From contig JAVYWL010000001.1 in the NCBI GenBank assembly GCA_038727135.1, forward strand, positions 320,001 to 384,000: a stretch of 64,000 bases of DNA, in the 5' to 3' direction. Numbering within the stretch: position 1 is the stretch's first letter; every line of letters starts with the position of its first letter. Shown piece by piece: positions 1 to 4,275 of this stretch. This DNA comes from Candidatus Bathyarchaeia archaeon (GTDB lineage Archaea; Thermoproteota; Bathyarchaeia; Bathyarchaeales; Bathycorpusculaceae). The notes beneath the pieces are model-generated. The model did no database searches, was not told the origin of the DNA, and saw only the letters and a program-made list of their open reading frames with translations. The translations under genes were made by a program, and so were the position numbers.

Positions 1-365
1 CAGTGTCCCCCAATAATCGCCATTTTTAAATCTCTTGCAGCCGCATCCATTTGAGAACATATAACCTCAATGGTTTTCCGGTCAGCCTCTTCTGGAAGTA
101 ATATACATGAAAGGAAGAAGGCTGGTTCCACACCGAAAGTGGCGACATCATTTGCATTAATGTTCACGGCAAGCCAACCAATACGCTCAACAGCACCAGT
201 AATGGGGTCCATTGAAGCCACCAGAGATTTCTCGCCTAAATCTATGACTGCACCATCATAGCCGGCTGAAGGCCCAATAATAACTTCATTACGTTTGTAA
301 CCTAAATTCTTGAAGACAACTTCTTCTAATATTTCTATGGGAACTTTTCCAAATGGCAGTTCCAA
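1..365 (-). CDS. AIR synthase (PurM/ThiL/HypE) family protein, N-terminal part; runs off the window edge
   Basis: Not in the ORF track. Manual translation from TTG at 365 gives MELPFGKVPIEILEEVVF...GPSAGYDGAV...SMDPITG...GWLAVNINANDVATFGVEP...IIGGH, the PurM-like N-terminal ATP-binding motifs. Confidence 0.88.
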   Translation of the reverse strand, partial: MELPFGKVPIEILEEVVFKNLGYKRNEVIIGPSAGYDGAVIDLGEKSLVASMDPITGAVERIGWLAVNINANDVATFGVEPAFFLSCILLPEEADRKTIEVICSQMDAAARDLKMAIIGGH

Positions 366-396
366 CTTTGATTCCTCAAGCAAGTATTTTCTGCTT

Positions 397-1149
397 TTAG
401 CTTTTAAGTTGTGGTAGAGCTTGCCTTACAATCCGAACAATAGGTGTAGCAACAATCACGCCTATAGTCATTTGCCCAATGTTTACAGGAACTTCTGCGA
501 AGGCGAAGACTCCGAGGAAAAATTGCTCGTAAAGGAAGTAGCCAAAAACCATCAAAAACCCTCCAAAGATGCACGCTATTATCGTTAAACTGAATTCAGG
601 TTCAGATATTAAGGCTAAGACCGTGATAATAATGAATGAGAGAACCCCTACCCCTAACCAAAACTCGACTGGGATAAAAAAGGTTGATGCGGGATTTTCT
701 ATGGAAACCATACCTGAATAAAGTTCGACAAAACCACTGTAATAGAGAAAGCCAATGAGGCTAATTAGCATTCCTATAAGTATGCCTATCTCAGTTGTGA
801 AAATCCTCCACTCCCTTTTGGTATGGGACTTGACGAAAACCTGCGCCTTTCGACTAAGAAAACCAGCTAGAAAACCCTCCAAAGCTTTAATTACCAAAGT
901 TGCTGGGGCATAATAGTAATAGCCGAGGAAAACGTCTGCGAGCATAGAGCCAACGCCACCAGCAAAGGCTCCTACAAAGGGTCCGAAAAGTAAGGCTGCT
1001 GTATAAACCATCGTCTCTCCGATGTTAAAGTAGCCTTTAGTGCTGGGTACATAAATTGTAAAGCTTATCGTTGCTATGCAAACAAGGGCTGTAAAAACAC
1101 CCGTAATACTTAATCGCCTTGCCAATTCTGCAGAAGATTTTGATAGCAT
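397..1149 (-). CDS. ECF transporter substrate-specific (S) component
   Basis: Multi-TM protein with P-x-T-x-GYFNIGE and GGVGSMLAD-x-FLGY...APATLVIK-x-LEG motifs typical of S components. Confidence 0.85.
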   Translation of the reverse strand: MLSKSSAELARRLSITGVFTALVCIATISFTIYVPSTKGYFNIGETMVYTAALLFGPFVGAFAGGVGSMLADVFLGYYYYAPATLVIKALEGFLAGFLSRKAQVFVKSHTKREWRIFTTEIGILIGMLISLIGFLYYSGFVELYSGMVSIENPASTFFIPVEFWLGVGVLSFIIITVLALISEPEFSLTIIACIFGGFLMVFGYFLYEQFFLGVFAFAEVPVNIGQMTIGVIVATPIVRIVRQALPQLKS

Positions 1150-1167
1150 AACGCGAACCTCTTTTTG

Positions 1168-1198
1168 ATAGTATAGCTACAACTATACTATTTTAAAT
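1168..1198 (-). promoter_or_regulatory. Palindromic operator (ATAGTATAG-N6-CTATACTAT) abutting the TATA box of the ECF gene
   Basis: Perfect 9-bp inverted repeat at 1168-1176 and 1183-1191; minus-strand ATTTAAAA box at 1191-1198; ATG at 1149. Confidence 0.7.
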
Positions 1199-1222
1199 TT
1201 ATGTTCCCGACTGCGTGGAAAA

Positions 1223-2626
1223 CTATAGGAGAAGTTTTAAGTTGTCGAACGCATGGAGGGCTTTCATTCCACGTTTTGTTATTTTAAAATACTTTCGCCC
1301 ATCTTTTTCATAACTTGAAATCAGCCCATTCTTTGAAAGTTCGGTTAAATGTTGGTAGATTGCCGCTCTTGTCATCATTTTTCCGAGTTTTTTCCATAAT
1401 TCATATCCGTAGGCATCCCCTTCACATAAAATTCTCAGTATTTTCTCTTTTGTGCTAAGCTCTAACCCAACCACAGCCGTTTTCCTTCTTTTGGTTAAGG
1501 CTTGGAGAATGTCTGTCGCCTTTAGCCCACTTCCAGTTATTAAGCATACAACTTTGTCCTTTTTGTCAATCACCCGTTCGTTCACAAGCTTTTTGAGCGC
1601 TGCGTAGGTTGCTGCGCTTGCTGGCTCGGCGAAGACTCCTTCATGCTTTGCAATTTCTTGTTCTGCTAAAAAAATTTCCTCGTCTGAAACTGATGTGGCG
1701 GTTCCTTTGGATTCTTTGATGGCTTTAAGGGCTAGTTTGCCATACCAAGGGTTTTTAACGAGGATAGCAAGCGCGCGGGTTGAAGGTTTTGTTTTGAGGG
1801 CTGGCTCCTCAAGGTTTTGCGTATACGCCCTAACTATTGGCGAGCATCCTTCGGCTTGAACGCCGACCATCTTTGGGAGAGAGTGTACTTCGCCTTTTAT
1901 TCCAAGCTCTTTGAAGCCTTTCCAAATGGCATATAGTGCTCCACCGCTTCCCATGGAGGCTATAAACCAGTCTGGAACACCCATCTGCTCGTAAACTTCG
2001 TAGGCTATGGTTTTTAGGGCTTCTATGGATAAGGGATTAAATTCGGCGGATCCTTGATACCAGTCCATTTCTTTGGCTAGCTCATCTGCTCTTTTCAGCG
2101 AATCGTCCACTATTTCCCCATACTCTTCGATCACGGCATCGTAGATGAGCATTTGGGCAAGTTTTCCCATATCCACATTTTTCGGCACTATAACATGACA
2201 TGTTAATCCAGACTTGGCGCAGTATGCGGCTAAAGAAGCCCCAAGGTTCCCATTTGTAGCGCACACAACCGACTTATACTCCAAATCTATGGCGTTAGAA
2301 ACAATTAGGGCGGCACATCTATCTCTAAAAGAGTTCGTTGGATTTCGCGTTTCATCCTTAAAGTATAAATTGTTTAGCCCAGCGTTTTTAGCAAGCCTTC
2401 TCGCCCTAATGAGAGGGGTACCCCCTTCCCCCATGGAGACAACATTTCTAACTTTTGGCAAGAATCTCTTGTAACGCCAAAAAATGAAGGGCCCAACGAA
2501 TTTCGCTTTTTTAAGGGTTTCATCATCGCATTTATACTCTAGGGGACTGTCACATTCCTCGCAACTATATTGCGGCGGGTAAGCTTCAAACCTTGTGCCG
2601 CATGCTGTGCATTCCAGATAGAACAT
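1223..2626 (-). CDS. Threonine synthase-like (fold-type II PLP) protein fused to a C-terminal PadR-like wHTH; catalytic Lys replaced by Arg
   Basis: N-terminal CxxC...CxxC, GEGGTPL, NPTNSFRDR (canonical NPTGSFKDR), EPASAA, ITGSGLK; C-terminal KILRIL...YGYELWK...AIYQHLTEL...GRKYFKIT..G winged helix. Confidence 0.85.
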   Translation of the reverse strand: MFYLECTACGTRFEAYPPQYSCEECDSPLEYKCDDETLKKAKFVGPFIFWRYKRFLPKVRNVVSMGEGGTPLIRARRLAKNAGLNNLYFKDETRNPTNSFRDRCAALIVSNAIDLEYKSVVCATNGNLGASLAAYCAKSGLTCHVIVPKNVDMGKLAQMLIYDAVIEEYGEIVDDSLKRADELAKEMDWYQGSAEFNPLSIEALKTIAYEVYEQMGVPDWFIASMGSGGALYAIWKGFKELGIKGEVHSLPKMVGVQAEGCSPIVRAYTQNLEEPALKTKPSTRALAILVKNPWYGKLALKAIKESKGTATSVSDEEIFLAEQEIAKHEGVFAEPASAATYAALKKLVNERVIDKKDKVVCLITGSGLKATDILQALTKRRKTAVVGLELSTKEKILRILCEGDAYGYELWKKLGKMMTRAAIYQHLTELSKNGLISSYEKDGRKYFKITKRGMKALHAFDNLKLLL

Positions 2627-2697
2627 TATTTTGCCTCGTCTCTCTTTCTAACCATCATATTTAACAGTCCCGTCTATGAGGCTTTCTAAATTTTGGT

Positions 2698-2949
2698 TTA
2701 AGATTCCAAACTTGGAAGGATTGCAATTATTTCTGCAACCCGCCTTATGGTTGCCCAGTCAAATTTGGCGTCGCTCTCCATATTAACTAAAAGATTAATC
2801 CCGTTCTGCCCGTCTCTTTCCAGTGTTTTTGGGCCTGCATCCTTTGGCTTTTTAAGCTCCATAATTGCTGGCAGAAGCATAATTATGATGAAGGTTATAA
2901 CTCCAAAAAACAACATTACAGCCGACGTTAAAGCCGAAGCCGGAACCAT
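2698..2949 (-). CDS. Small single-pass membrane protein
   Basis: 83-aa ORF with N-terminal TM followed by LLPAIMELKKPKDAGP; starts 3 nt after the GT2 stop. Confidence 0.65.
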   Translation of the reverse strand: MVPASALTSAVMLFFGVITFIIIMLLPAIMELKKPKDAGPKTLERDGQNGINLLVNMESDAKFDWATIRRVAEIIAILPSLES

Positions 2950-2952
2950 TCT

Positions 2953-4275
2953 CTACCTTTCTAAATGTTTGATGCAGTTCATAATATAACAGTTTCCATT
3001 GCCTGAATGCTCAGTCTTCGCCCAATGGTTGTTGTTTTTCTTTGTAATTTTTGAGAACAGAAGGTCGATGAGGGCTTTTGTACATATGGGAATGTTATAT
3101 AAAAGTGTGAAGAGAAGTAGGGGGATAAGCCACTGCGCCCTCTTTCTGCCGTCAAGATAAGCCCCAACACCAATCTCATAAAATGGGGCAAAGTTCCCAA
3201 TAGAACTGTAGAGGGCGATGGAGGATGCCGCCCAAAATGAGGTGGACCATTGTGAAAATTTCAGAAAGGTTAGCGCCGCCCCAATTATCCATGAAAGAAG
3301 GACGACAACGGGGAGAAAATAGACGCCGAGCAGAAGTAGGCCGTCAATTTTCTCTTTAAATCCGAGCTCTCTGCTTTTTAGAACTTTAAGCCAATGTTTA
3401 AAGGCGCATTGCATATGCCCTTTTGCCCACCTGTATCGTTGTCTCCAGTAGGCTCGCCAGTTTTCAACAGCCTCTTCGTAGCATTCCGCATCGCCAACAT
3501 ACTTAACCTTGTAACCAGCGAGGTAAACACGGAAAGTTAGATCGGTGTCCTCTGCCAAAATATTTTCGTCCCATCCGCCAAGAGATTCCAAAAGAACGCG
3601 CCTAAAACCTCCGACAGTTCCTCCGAATTGAGTTATTAAGCCGAGGGTGTCGCGGGCTTCTTGGTCGACGCGGTATCCGCCTATCCTTTCAAGGGCAACA
3701 AGCCTCGTGACAATGTTCTGCGGCTCGTTGAGCACAACAACCCTGCCTTGAACGGCTCCAACTTTTGGGTCCTTAAACTCTTTCACAAGTTTTTCCACAA
3801 TGTCCCTTTGCGGATAGTAGTCAGCATCAAAACACAATACTATTTCGCCATCAGCCAGCTTCATTCCAGCGTTTAAGGCGGAAGCCTTCCCGCGACCACC
3901 CTCTTCTTTATCTCTTCTCACAACAAGTATGTAAGGATGAATCCTCGAATACTGTTCTGCTATTATTCCAGTTCTATCTGTTGAAGCGTCATCTATCACT
4001 ATTATCTGCAACTTATCCTTAGGATATGTCAGCTCCGTCATTCTTTGGAGAATCCGTCCAATAACACGTTCTTCGTTGCGGGCAGGTATCAAAATTGACA
4101 CTTTTGGTTGATAATATGGGTCCGCAATTTCAGCTGCATTAATGCTTTCTCCATTTCTCTTTGATTTCTTGGCAACTGTAAATGTGAAAATGTAGTGGCG
4201 AACAAGGTATGCCACCATCAAAGCTGTCGACAAAATAAGTAATGCCTCTAAAATTTCTGTTATCAAGTTTTCCAC
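2953..4275 (-). CDS. Processive GT2 glycosyltransferase (cellulose synthase/PgaC-like)
   Basis: IPARNE, DDASTD, GKASALN, FDAD, AEDTD and QRYRW (D,D,D,QxxRW) motifs plus TM helices. Confidence 0.9.
   Translation of the reverse strand: MENLITEILEALLILSTALMVAYLVRHYIFTFTVAKKSKRNGESINAAEIADPYYQPKVSILIPARNEERVIGRILQRMTELTYPKDKLQIIVIDDASTDRTGIIAEQYSRIHPYILVVRRDKEEGGRGKASALNAGMKLADGEIVLCFDADYYPQRDIVEKLVKEFKDPKVGAVQGRVVVLNEPQNIVTRLVALERIGGYRVDQEARDTLGLITQFGGTVGGFRRVLLESLGGWDENILAEDTDLTFRVYLAGYKVKYVGDAECYEEAVENWRAYWRQRYRWAKGHMQCAFKHWLKVLKSRELGFKEKIDGLLLLGVYFLPVVVLLSWIIGAALTFLKFSQWSTSFWAASSIALYSSIGNFAPFYEIGVGAYLDGRKRAQWLIPLLLFTLLYNIPICTKALIDLLFSKITKKNNNHWAKTEHSGNGNCYIMNCIKHLER

Follow-up and report, generated by a model that had tools for sequence, protein, structure and literature searches.

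A lysine-less threonine-synthase relative with a winged helix, a candidate vitamin B6-responsive repressor in Bathyarchaeia

Here, we propose that a relative of threonine synthase (ThrC) has become a vitamin B6-responsive repressor in a Candidatus Bathyarchaeia archaeon. The stretch of DNA that we analyzed, referred to below as the window, comprises 64,000 nucleotides (G000:C1:320001-384000) of a 1.55 Mb genome that is assembled in 7 contigs and rated 94.7% complete. At one edge of the window lie the genes for REG, a ThrC-like protein fused to a winged helix-turn-helix (wHTH) domain, for ECFS, an S component of an energy-coupling factor (ECF) transporter, and for PURML, a PurM-superfamily protein. 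With a probability of about 0.72, we read REG as a predicted repressor of ECFS-PURML, and of pdxS-pdxT in relatives having these genes. Sequence comparison revealed that close REG homologues lack the lysine that binds pyridoxal 5'-phosphate (PLP), that REG and ECFS are associated across genomes, that a palindromic site co-occurs with REG, and that similar sites precede pdxS. From these observations we infer that REG binds DNA and represses transcription, that PLP is its effector, and that ECFS transports B6, as well as the reaction that PURML would catalyze; the ligand and the sign of regulation are predicted from just two things, the position of the site and the ancestry of the domains.

The locus was singled out by an original prediction, made from the letters of the window, which had described three co-oriented genes, a perfect palindrome at the ECF promoter, and a PLP-fold sensor over a B6 uptake and salvage unit. 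Open reading frame (ORF) and Pfam reading of the window placed REG, ECFS, and PURML, co-oriented as described, on the minus strand, although PURML is incomplete within the window; the whole gene, which runs past the window edge (L002:11346-12383), encodes 345 aa with AIRS and AIRS_C domains. The palindrome was confirmed, and the sensor idea gained support from synteny, from co-occurrence of the motif, and from a link to pdxS and pdxT, its effector and sign of regulation being predictions.

REG, a ThrC relative that lacks the PLP lysine

REG starts with a Cys4 zinc ribbon, whose cysteines C6, C9, C22, and C25 are invariant among close homologues, and continues into a PALP domain that matches the solved threonine synthase 2zsj with E = 9.7e-65. 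Against TIGR00260 (thrC), REG scored 216.7 bits, above the cut-off of 167.1. The best NCBIfam model was NF004170 (PRK05638), which aligned to REG over positions 2-441 of 442 and scored 400.7 bits, below the cut-off of 421, which makes REG a close relative of the NF004170 family rather than a member. Since this end-to-end alignment includes the winged helix, the fusion is already in the databases under an enzyme name; members of the REG family are always named 'threonine synthase' or 'pyridoxal-phosphate dependent enzyme'. By the names of their sources, they occur in Bathyarchaeia, Nitrososphaeria, Methanomethylicia, Brockarchaeota, Thermoprotei, and Thor-, Odin-, and Lokiarchaeota/Promethearchaeota. 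The NF004170 cut-off was reached in none of 14 named control genomes.

REG carries the motif NPTNSFRDR, with SFRDR where the enzymes have SFKDR, and alignment with four threonine synthases of solved structure puts Arg101 at their PLP lysine. We inspected this position in 120 close homologues (67-99% identical, all from Bathyarchaeia), and lysine was found in none (R in 116, S in 2, M in 1, motif unmatched in 1). A wider sample consisted of the 150 best cluster representatives out of 1.84 billion proteins, divided into a long form (at least 435 aa, n = 75) and a short form (n = 75). Most long-form representatives aligned to REG into the wHTH; 62 of the 75 have R, L, I, V, M, T, S, Y, A, F, or N instead of lysine, 7 keep K, and 6 were not matched by the pattern. 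Lysine was kept in 59 of the 75 short-form representatives. The lysine-keeping long forms include P0121 (470 aa) and P0126 (475 aa), both aligned to REG through the wHTH region, and may be intermediates or bifunctional enzyme-regulators. Two further ThrC paralogues are encoded in the same genome as REG, both with the motif NPTGSFKDR.

Several blocks of the fold are conserved in REG, namely the Gly-rich loop GSGG, GN, EPASAA, and TGSGLK, which contact the cofactor in ThrC structures. Retention of these blocks together with loss of the lysine suggests that REG has given up covalent catalysis but preserved its fold and a large part of the cofactor site. An AlphaFold2 model of REG, built from 22 close sequences, was too poor for analysis of the pocket (mean pLDDT, the predicted local distance difference test score, 68.9; PLP loops below 50) and was not used. 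On these grounds, REG is a predicted transcription factor and a pseudoenzyme, with DNA binding expected from its winged helix, and the entire REG family is probably misannotated as 'threonine synthase'.

The palindrome, the REG neighborhood, and pdxS

The inverted repeat ATAGTATAG-N6-CTATACTAT in front of ECFS has arms that are 100% complementary, and its family consensus is TAGTATAGTT-NN-AACTATACTA, a 22-bp core. With up to 3 mismatches allowed, the window contains no other match (0.02 expected from shuffled sequence), and the palindrome is also unique in the 1.55 Mb genome. No extra regulon members were found in this genome; eight other sites at 5 mismatches in the 1.55 Mb look like noise. 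On the coding strand, the A/T box aatttaaaa is followed by the palindrome, then by about 20 nt that include GAGGT, then by the ATG of ECFS. When the usual archaeal TATA-to-start spacing is applied to the A/T box, the palindrome would occupy about -23 to -1, between a TATA-like box and the predicted transcription start.

A synteny scan with one genome per species yielded 80 Bathyarchaeia loci with REG (59-93% identical). ECFS is the next gene after REG, on the same strand, in 69 of these, and is present in at least 77; two of the three loci without ECFS stop at a contig edge just past REG. PURML occupies the next position in 53 of 80 loci and is present in 59. An operator site (up to 4 mismatches) was found at the ECFS promoter in all 77 REG loci holding ECFS, always with an A/T box immediately before it, and there were no such sites elsewhere in the 982 kb of the 80 loci. 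Such conservation of position, in 77 of 77 related loci, is far beyond chance. At three loci where other genes separate REG from ECFS (L030, L033, and L074), the site remains with ECFS. In seven loci (L059, L061, L066, L078, L079, L082, and L085), an extra right half-site follows the operator (e.g. ...AACTATACTAAAGTCACAACTATACTAAGG) and makes three half-sites, an arrangement suggesting that binding is cooperative or of higher order in some lineages.

For comparison, we collected 16 loci from Bathyarchaeia genomes that gave no match to REG. All 16 retained the ECFS-PURML pair; 14 had no site and two had decayed remnants in the right place (3 and 5 mismatches). This pattern is what would be expected if the site decays after loss of its binding protein. 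An intact half-site could still be read at both remnants and at a third ECFS promoter; these single half-sites or degenerate operators in genomes without detected REG (L181 at ~2154, L183 upstream of 3468, and L191 at ~1732) look like relics of a lost regulator. The motif co-occurrence by which the original prediction could be checked was borne out on both sides, in loci with REG and in loci without.

We also considered an RNA hairpin. Of the departures from the consensus within the arms, 89 affected one side only and 4 were compensated, a count to be read with the site search itself favoring the consensus, and an Rfam scan of window positions 1-3000 found no RNA family. So few compensatory changes led us to reject the hairpin and, with the Rfam result, point to a DNA site rather than an RNA helix.

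Beyond the closest relatives, the sequence of the site changes with the REG clade. In family f13, a different palindrome, TTAAAGTT-NN-AACTTTAA, stands at the same place, and several further families have the motif TATAAG(T/C)-N4-8-C(C/T)(C/T)ATATA (type 2), all 11 of whose occurrences in 568 kb fall in REG, ECFS, or pdxS intergenic regions. A distant sample of 40 REG loci across the phylum (28-51% identical) had the motif without lysine in 32, the pattern being unmatched in the other 8, and ECFS adjoins REG in 23 of the 40, in co-directional, divergent, or convergent orientation. Six loci of family f13 have the operon order REG-ECFS-EcfAA'-EcfT, read by eye from the sequences, which indicates that ECFS works with an ECF module. 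One Bathyarchaeia locus (L136, G252:C66) holds a second, divergent REG paralogue with Ile at the lysine position; it has a type-2 motif in its upstream region and faces a gene for a membrane-anchored GNAT-like protein, so that the REG family may have diversified to other targets.

The link to B6 synthesis was examined in 43 Bathyarchaeia genomes rated 90-100% complete, which were searched for REG with a C-terminal query and for PdxS with the Pfam cut-off of PF01680. REG was undetected in 25 of the 43, PdxS was above the cut-off in 8, and no PdxS was found in the window's genome at its 94.7% completeness. All three genomes with REG and a separate pdxS (G148, G300, and G101) have operator-like sites, with 3, 5, and 4 mismatches, respectively, at ~20-45 nt before the pdxS ATG; no operator-like site was found at pdxS in the four genomes with PdxS and without REG. 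Given the eight stray 5-mismatch sites in 1.55 Mb, the probability of a chance site within 100 nt of a given gene is about 5 in 10,000. PdxS is absent from four of five genomes of family f13; the fifth, G198, has the family's own palindrome at its ECF operon and again 36-53 nt upstream of pdxS-pdxT, and these are two of only four sites in 1.57 Mb. Other matches to the f13 palindrome pattern lie within genes or beside unrelated genes. In three further loci (L139, L140, and L145), REG is divergent from pdxS and pdxT, both named by eye, and PdxS of the L145 genome was confirmed with PF01680. The synteny and the pdxS/pdxT connection that the original prediction had named as checks were both recovered.

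The transporter, the PurM-superfamily enzyme, and the locus

ECFS had a single match among solved chains, 4hzu_S, with E = 1.2e-9. According to PMC4860826, this chain is HmpT/PdxU2 of Lactobacillus brevis, which was first assigned to the thiamine precursor hydroxymethylpyrimidine (HMP) and in which mass spectrometry identified pyridoxamine as the bound substrate; PMC9997740 assigns the B6 transporters PdxU and PdxU2/HmpT to PF07155. Counted on the alignment, four of six HmpT pocket residues are identical in ECFS (E41, Y120, N140, and Q143), with H84 replaced by K and Q87 by E. These identities are no more than suggestive of B6-vitamer binding. HmpT has 166 aa, and ECFS contains an insertion of ~85 residues (residues ~102-190, with two extra predicted membrane helices) between the HmpT-aligned blocks; many Bathyarchaeia relatives have a short-form ECFS of 170-200 aa without it. 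The window's genome encodes one EcfT (PF02361, 118 bits), elsewhere in the genome, and three further PF07155-like S components (G000:C2:20436-20900, C1:455753-456217, and C3:120986-121297). Having several S components but just one EcfT, the genome appears to share one ECF module among several vitamin importers. We propose that ECFS is a B6-vitamer importer, judging from its sequence relatives.

PURML has the ATP-binding motifs of the PurM superfamily and fell below every equivalog cut-off (HypE 122.7/251.6, ThiL 90/184, and SelD 76.7/125 bits). Its nearest solved relatives are HypE, and its sources name it 'AIR synthase family protein' or 'hydrogenase maturation factor'; an ESM Atlas search with PURML returned 'AIR synthase family protein' clusters only. 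In the 20 of 120 homologues that were read, the C-terminal Cys of HypE is not conserved (the position holds C, F, S, T, or Y), and there is a conserved C-terminal tail, PRPxxDHLWxAL. A true ThiL (264.6 bits, above the cut-off) is encoded elsewhere in the window's genome.

PURML is paired with ECFS both with and without REG. It was found in 40 of the 43 genomes, the three that lack it belonging to family f7 and having PdxS but neither ECFS nor REG. Among the 35 genomes that lack PdxS, PURML is present in all and ECFS in 31. In G183 (L190), PURML is directly upstream of pdxS-pdxT, and in L129 it is divergent from REG-ECFS. In three loci (L041, L042, and L055, the last being Candidatus Bathyarchaeum tardum M17C-01, CP122380.1), a short-form ECFS is followed not by PURML but, as read by eye, by NAD-kinase-like (GGDGT motif) and glycerophosphodiester-phosphodiesterase-like proteins.

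No protein above the PdxK/PdxY cut-off (TIGR00687) was found in 44 Bathyarchaeia genomes, and 23 of these had no match at all, ThiD-like proteins included. Together with PdxS in 8 of 43 genomes, this makes B6 auxotrophy look like the rule in Bathyarchaeia. PURML itself was tried as PdxK/PdxY and rejected, having AIRS and AIRS_C domains and not a ribokinase-like fold (TIGR00687/PF08543). If it is a kinase, it would be a non-orthologous replacement of PdxK/PdxY. Alternative B6 kinases are still to be found, as PMC9997740 states; given the B6 context and the lack of a canonical PdxK, a kinase role for PURML is an attractive hypothesis. A literature search found no paper that joins an AIR synthase with the S component of an ECF transporter.

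The features of the locus are listed in Table 1. REG and ECFS are separated by 73 bases, from stop to start, and PURML starts 13 nt (TTG) or 31 nt past ECFS. Directly upstream of REG, and also on the minus strand (window 2698-4275), lie genes for a membrane protein of 83 aa that matched nothing in Pfam and for a family-2 glycosyltransferase, a pair that is syntenic in the closest relatives. Because no palindrome lies between this pair and REG, REG may be read through from upstream.

Table 1. Coordinates in the window of REG, ECFS, PURML, and the signals between them
Feature	Position	Strand	Basis
REG, 467-aa fusion (Cys4 ribbon, lysine-less ThrC-like PALP, PadR wHTH)	1223..2626	-	ORF, Pfam, NCBIfam
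PALP (ThrC-like) domain of REG, residues 63-365	1532..2440	-	PF00291, 259.6 bits, E = 4.8e-77
Codon for Arg101 (coding-strand AGA), aligned with the PLP Schiff-base lysine	2324..2326	-	Alignment to four solved threonine synthases
PadR-family winged helix of REG, residues 396-458	1253..1441	-	PF03551, 51 bits (cut-off 27), E = 1.5e-13
TATA-like A/T box, aatttaaaa on the coding strand	1191..1199	-	Read from sequence; directly 5' of the palindrome
Putative operator, perfect 9+9 palindrome	1168..1191	no strand	Inverted-repeat search; family consensus core 1169-1190
Shine-Dalgarno-like GAGGT, 3' end 7 nt before the ECFS ATG	1157..1161	-	Read from sequence
ECFS, ECF S component of the PdxU/PdxU2/RibU Pfam family, 250 aa	397..1149	-	PF07155, 102.5 bits (cut-off 26.7), E = 3.3e-29
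PURML, first 127 codons of a 345-aa PurM-superfamily gene	1..383	-	AIRS domain; gene cut by the window edge

Proposed mechanism, alternatives, and known systems

We propose the following mechanism. REG would have arisen from a ThrC paralogue that lost the bond-forming lysine but little else of its PLP-binding scaffold, and that acquired a PadR winged helix. ThrC and PadR proteins are both dimeric, and a REG dimer would sit on the 22-bp palindrome between the TATA box and the transcription start, a position from which it would block initiation of ECFS-PURML. A B6 vitamer, likeliest PLP or a related phosphorylated form, would be held reversibly and non-covalently in the old active site and act as a co-repressor that favors the DNA-binding form. 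The importer would then be off when B6 is plentiful and made when B6 is scarce. ECFS would dock on the shared EcfT/EcfA module to bring in the vitamer, and PURML would trap or convert it, phosphorylation being the simplest guess. Since PdxS was not found in the genome, the regulon here would be the uptake operon only, and uptake the sole visible route to B6; in relatives with pdxS-pdxT, the same regulator family would also control these genes.

Several observations weigh against a B6-responsive REG. Altered residues in the ThrC active-site loops (STGNT to TNGNL and GNAGN to GSGGA) mean that PLP binding by REG is not assured. In the 43 genomes, REG and PdxS occur together in 4, REG without PdxS in 14, PdxS without REG in 4, and neither in 21; this distribution led us to reject the idea that REG presence mirrors PdxS absence, and it means that many genomes keep ECFS-PURML without REG and without a recognizable operator. 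REG is dispensable; in the family to which the window's genome belongs, most genomes have ECFS-PURML but no REG. Among the 40 distant loci, 17 have neither ECFS nor pdxS adjacent to REG, and no B6 link was apparent in the neighbors of these, read by eye (GatD/GatE, deoxyhypusine synthase, UbiX/UbiD, and others). The type-2 motif may in part simply reflect the pair of TATA boxes that divergent promoters contain, and the named HmpT pocket residues may be family-wide and not B6-specific. For PURML, the best-scoring model is HypE, below its cut-off; the PurM-superfamily kinases known to us act on phosphate or selenide, not on an alcohol, and vitamer phosphorylation would be unusual chemistry for this superfamily. 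A ThiD-like kinase present in the window's genome could phosphorylate B6 instead. Lastly, a genuine thrC paralogue (~41% identical) lies upstream of REG, on the opposite strand, in 12 of the 80 Bathyarchaeia loci (L049, L056, L063, L070-L072, L074, L076, L080, L081, L084, and L085), and this neighborhood could point to a threonine-pathway signal.

REG might accordingly have kept the old ThrC pocket to sense threonine or O-phosphohomoserine, with ECFS and PURML serving amino-acid or related metabolism. The ThrC ancestry of REG is very clear, and by-eye reading of translations placed several of the 12 thrC-neighbor loci near homoserine dehydrogenase (hom), an ACT protein, and IlvD as well; PURML is absent from these loci. 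However, none of these loci has an operator site at thrC or hom, the sole sites being at ECFS, and a thrC gene next to REG is equally consistent with an origin of REG by tandem thrC duplication. Sites or adjacency involve pdxS-pdxT in three lineages, and PF07155 S components are vitamin carriers, the nearest solved one carrying pyridoxamine. We give threonine sensing little chance. It is very improbable that REG is a working threonine synthase, or another PLP enzyme, with a DNA-binding tail, and that the palindrome belongs to another factor or is a mere promoter element. Such an enzyme would explain why REG passes the TIGR00260 cut-off, why every source gives the family an enzyme name, and why 7 of 75 long forms keep the lysine, but the catalytic lysine is missing from 119 of 119 close homologues with a readable motif, its replacements are chemically unrelated family-wide, and the genome has two intact ThrC paralogues. 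Nor would another factor account for an operator that is present with REG, decays where REG is undetected, and shifts in sequence with the REG clade.

The remaining alternatives concern the operon. A thiamine module, in which ECFS imports HMP, PURML is a ThiL-like kinase, and REG senses a related pyrimidine, would agree with the first naming of HmpT, with the similarity of PURML to ThiL (90 bits), and with the alike shapes of HMP and B6 vitamers. Set against this are the true ThiL of the genome, the score of PURML far under the ThiL cut-off, sites and adjacency at pdxS-pdxT and not at thi genes, and the mass spectrometry that assigned pyridoxamine to HmpT (PMC4860826); we find a thiamine role improbable. 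A milder departure, which we regard as unlikely on balance although it deserves attention, is that REG regulates B6 genes while PURML performs another ATP-dependent step, e.g. carbonyl or amide activation of a B6 derivative or conjugate, or is a passenger of the operon. Enzymes of the PurM superfamily activate a carbonyl oxygen or phosphorylate a phosphate or selenide, and the HypE relationship, the ThiD-type kinase, and the NAD-kinase-like protein that follows ECFS in three loci all lean that way. Yet PURML stays in tight association with ECFS even where a genome has no REG, is present in every sampled genome that lacks PdxS, and adjoins pdxS-pdxT in G183, and 23 of 44 genomes have no match to the PdxK model, ThiD-like proteins included. 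Returning to REG as a B6-responsive repressor, we also entertain, tentatively and at less than even odds, a broader claim, namely that REG founds a pan-archaeal family of PLP-sensing transcription factors made from lysine-less ThrC (in Thermoproteota, including Bathyarchaeia and Nitrososphaeria, and in Asgard archaea), and that its regulon exposes an ATP-dependent vitamer kinase of the PurM superfamily.

How does REG relate to known regulators? MocR factors keep the Schiff-base lysine, which REG has lost. REG resembles PdxR of Bacteria (MocR/GabR subfamily of GntR regulators) in using the fold of a PLP enzyme as a sensor fused to a winged helix. The sensor of REG is of fold type II (ThrC-like) and that of PdxR of fold type I (aminotransferase-like), and REG has a C-terminal PadR domain where PdxR has an N-terminal GntR domain. 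The Pfam scan of REG gave PALP and PadR only, thus outside the MocR/PdxR domain make-up. As for the regulon, PMC5320631 lists pdxST, pdxK, and pdxU under bacterial PdxR, i.e. synthesis, salvage, and an ECF S component, and states that MocR factors are absent from Archaea. In both systems the operators are built of repeats. A comparable set, in which B6 synthesis and a predicted B6 transporter share an operator, was found here, with sites at the ECFS promoter of all 77 loci and ahead of pdxS in G148, G300, G101, and G198. The relation of REG to PdxR is convergence, not membership.

Archaeal ThiR (with a ThiN domain) and RbkR (with a riboflavin kinase domain) are enzyme-derived regulators of vitamin synthesis and uptake genes. 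REG would likewise be an archaeal transcription factor built from a vitamin-binding enzyme, but for another vitamin, with another sensor fold and DNA-binding family, and with a donor enzyme that uses the cofactor and is not part of its pathway. With ThrC itself (TIGR00260; NF004170/PRK05638), REG shares the fold, a Cys4 ribbon as in the archaeal paralogues, and 38-45% identity; it differs in the missing lysine, the added wHTH, and its sub-threshold score on NF004170. ECFS belongs to the Pfam family of PdxU2/HmpT and PdxU and lies under a predicted B6 regulator, as pdxU does in bacteria (PMC5320631), but is archaeal and differs from PdxU2/HmpT in its insertion and two pocket substitutions. PURML has the domains and ATP-binding motifs of HypE, ThiL, SelD, and PurM, and is set apart by its scores, its tail, and its B6 context. 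The original prediction knew of no characterized example of such a system; our literature search, which mostly did not extend to subscription journals or to the supplementary tables of PMC9997740 and PMC5320631, likewise found no prior account of an archaeal B6 regulator of the ThrC-like or PadR kind. The general kind, a cofactor-fold sensor with a winged helix over vitamin genes, has precedents; the REG family is new, non-homologous to PdxR, and widespread.

We know of no factor that regulates vitamin B6 genes in Archaea, and REG is a concrete candidate for this missing regulator, with a defined putative operator. It would represent a convergent reuse of a PLP-enzyme fold as a PLP sensor, with another fold, another DNA-binding domain, and the catalytic lysine removed. 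The enzyme name carried by the REG family distorts reconstructions of threonine synthesis in Bathyarchaeia, Nitrososphaeria, Methanomethylicia, Thermoprotei, and Asgard archaea. PURML becomes a candidate for the missing B6 salvage step and, if this is true, would fill the place of the 'alternative B6 kinase', which is still missing in many prokaryotes according to surveys of PLP metabolism. Collectively, our results point to a candidate B6 importer of a very abundant uncultured group, with implications for the composition of cultivation media and for the cross-feeding of vitamins in sediments and hot springs.

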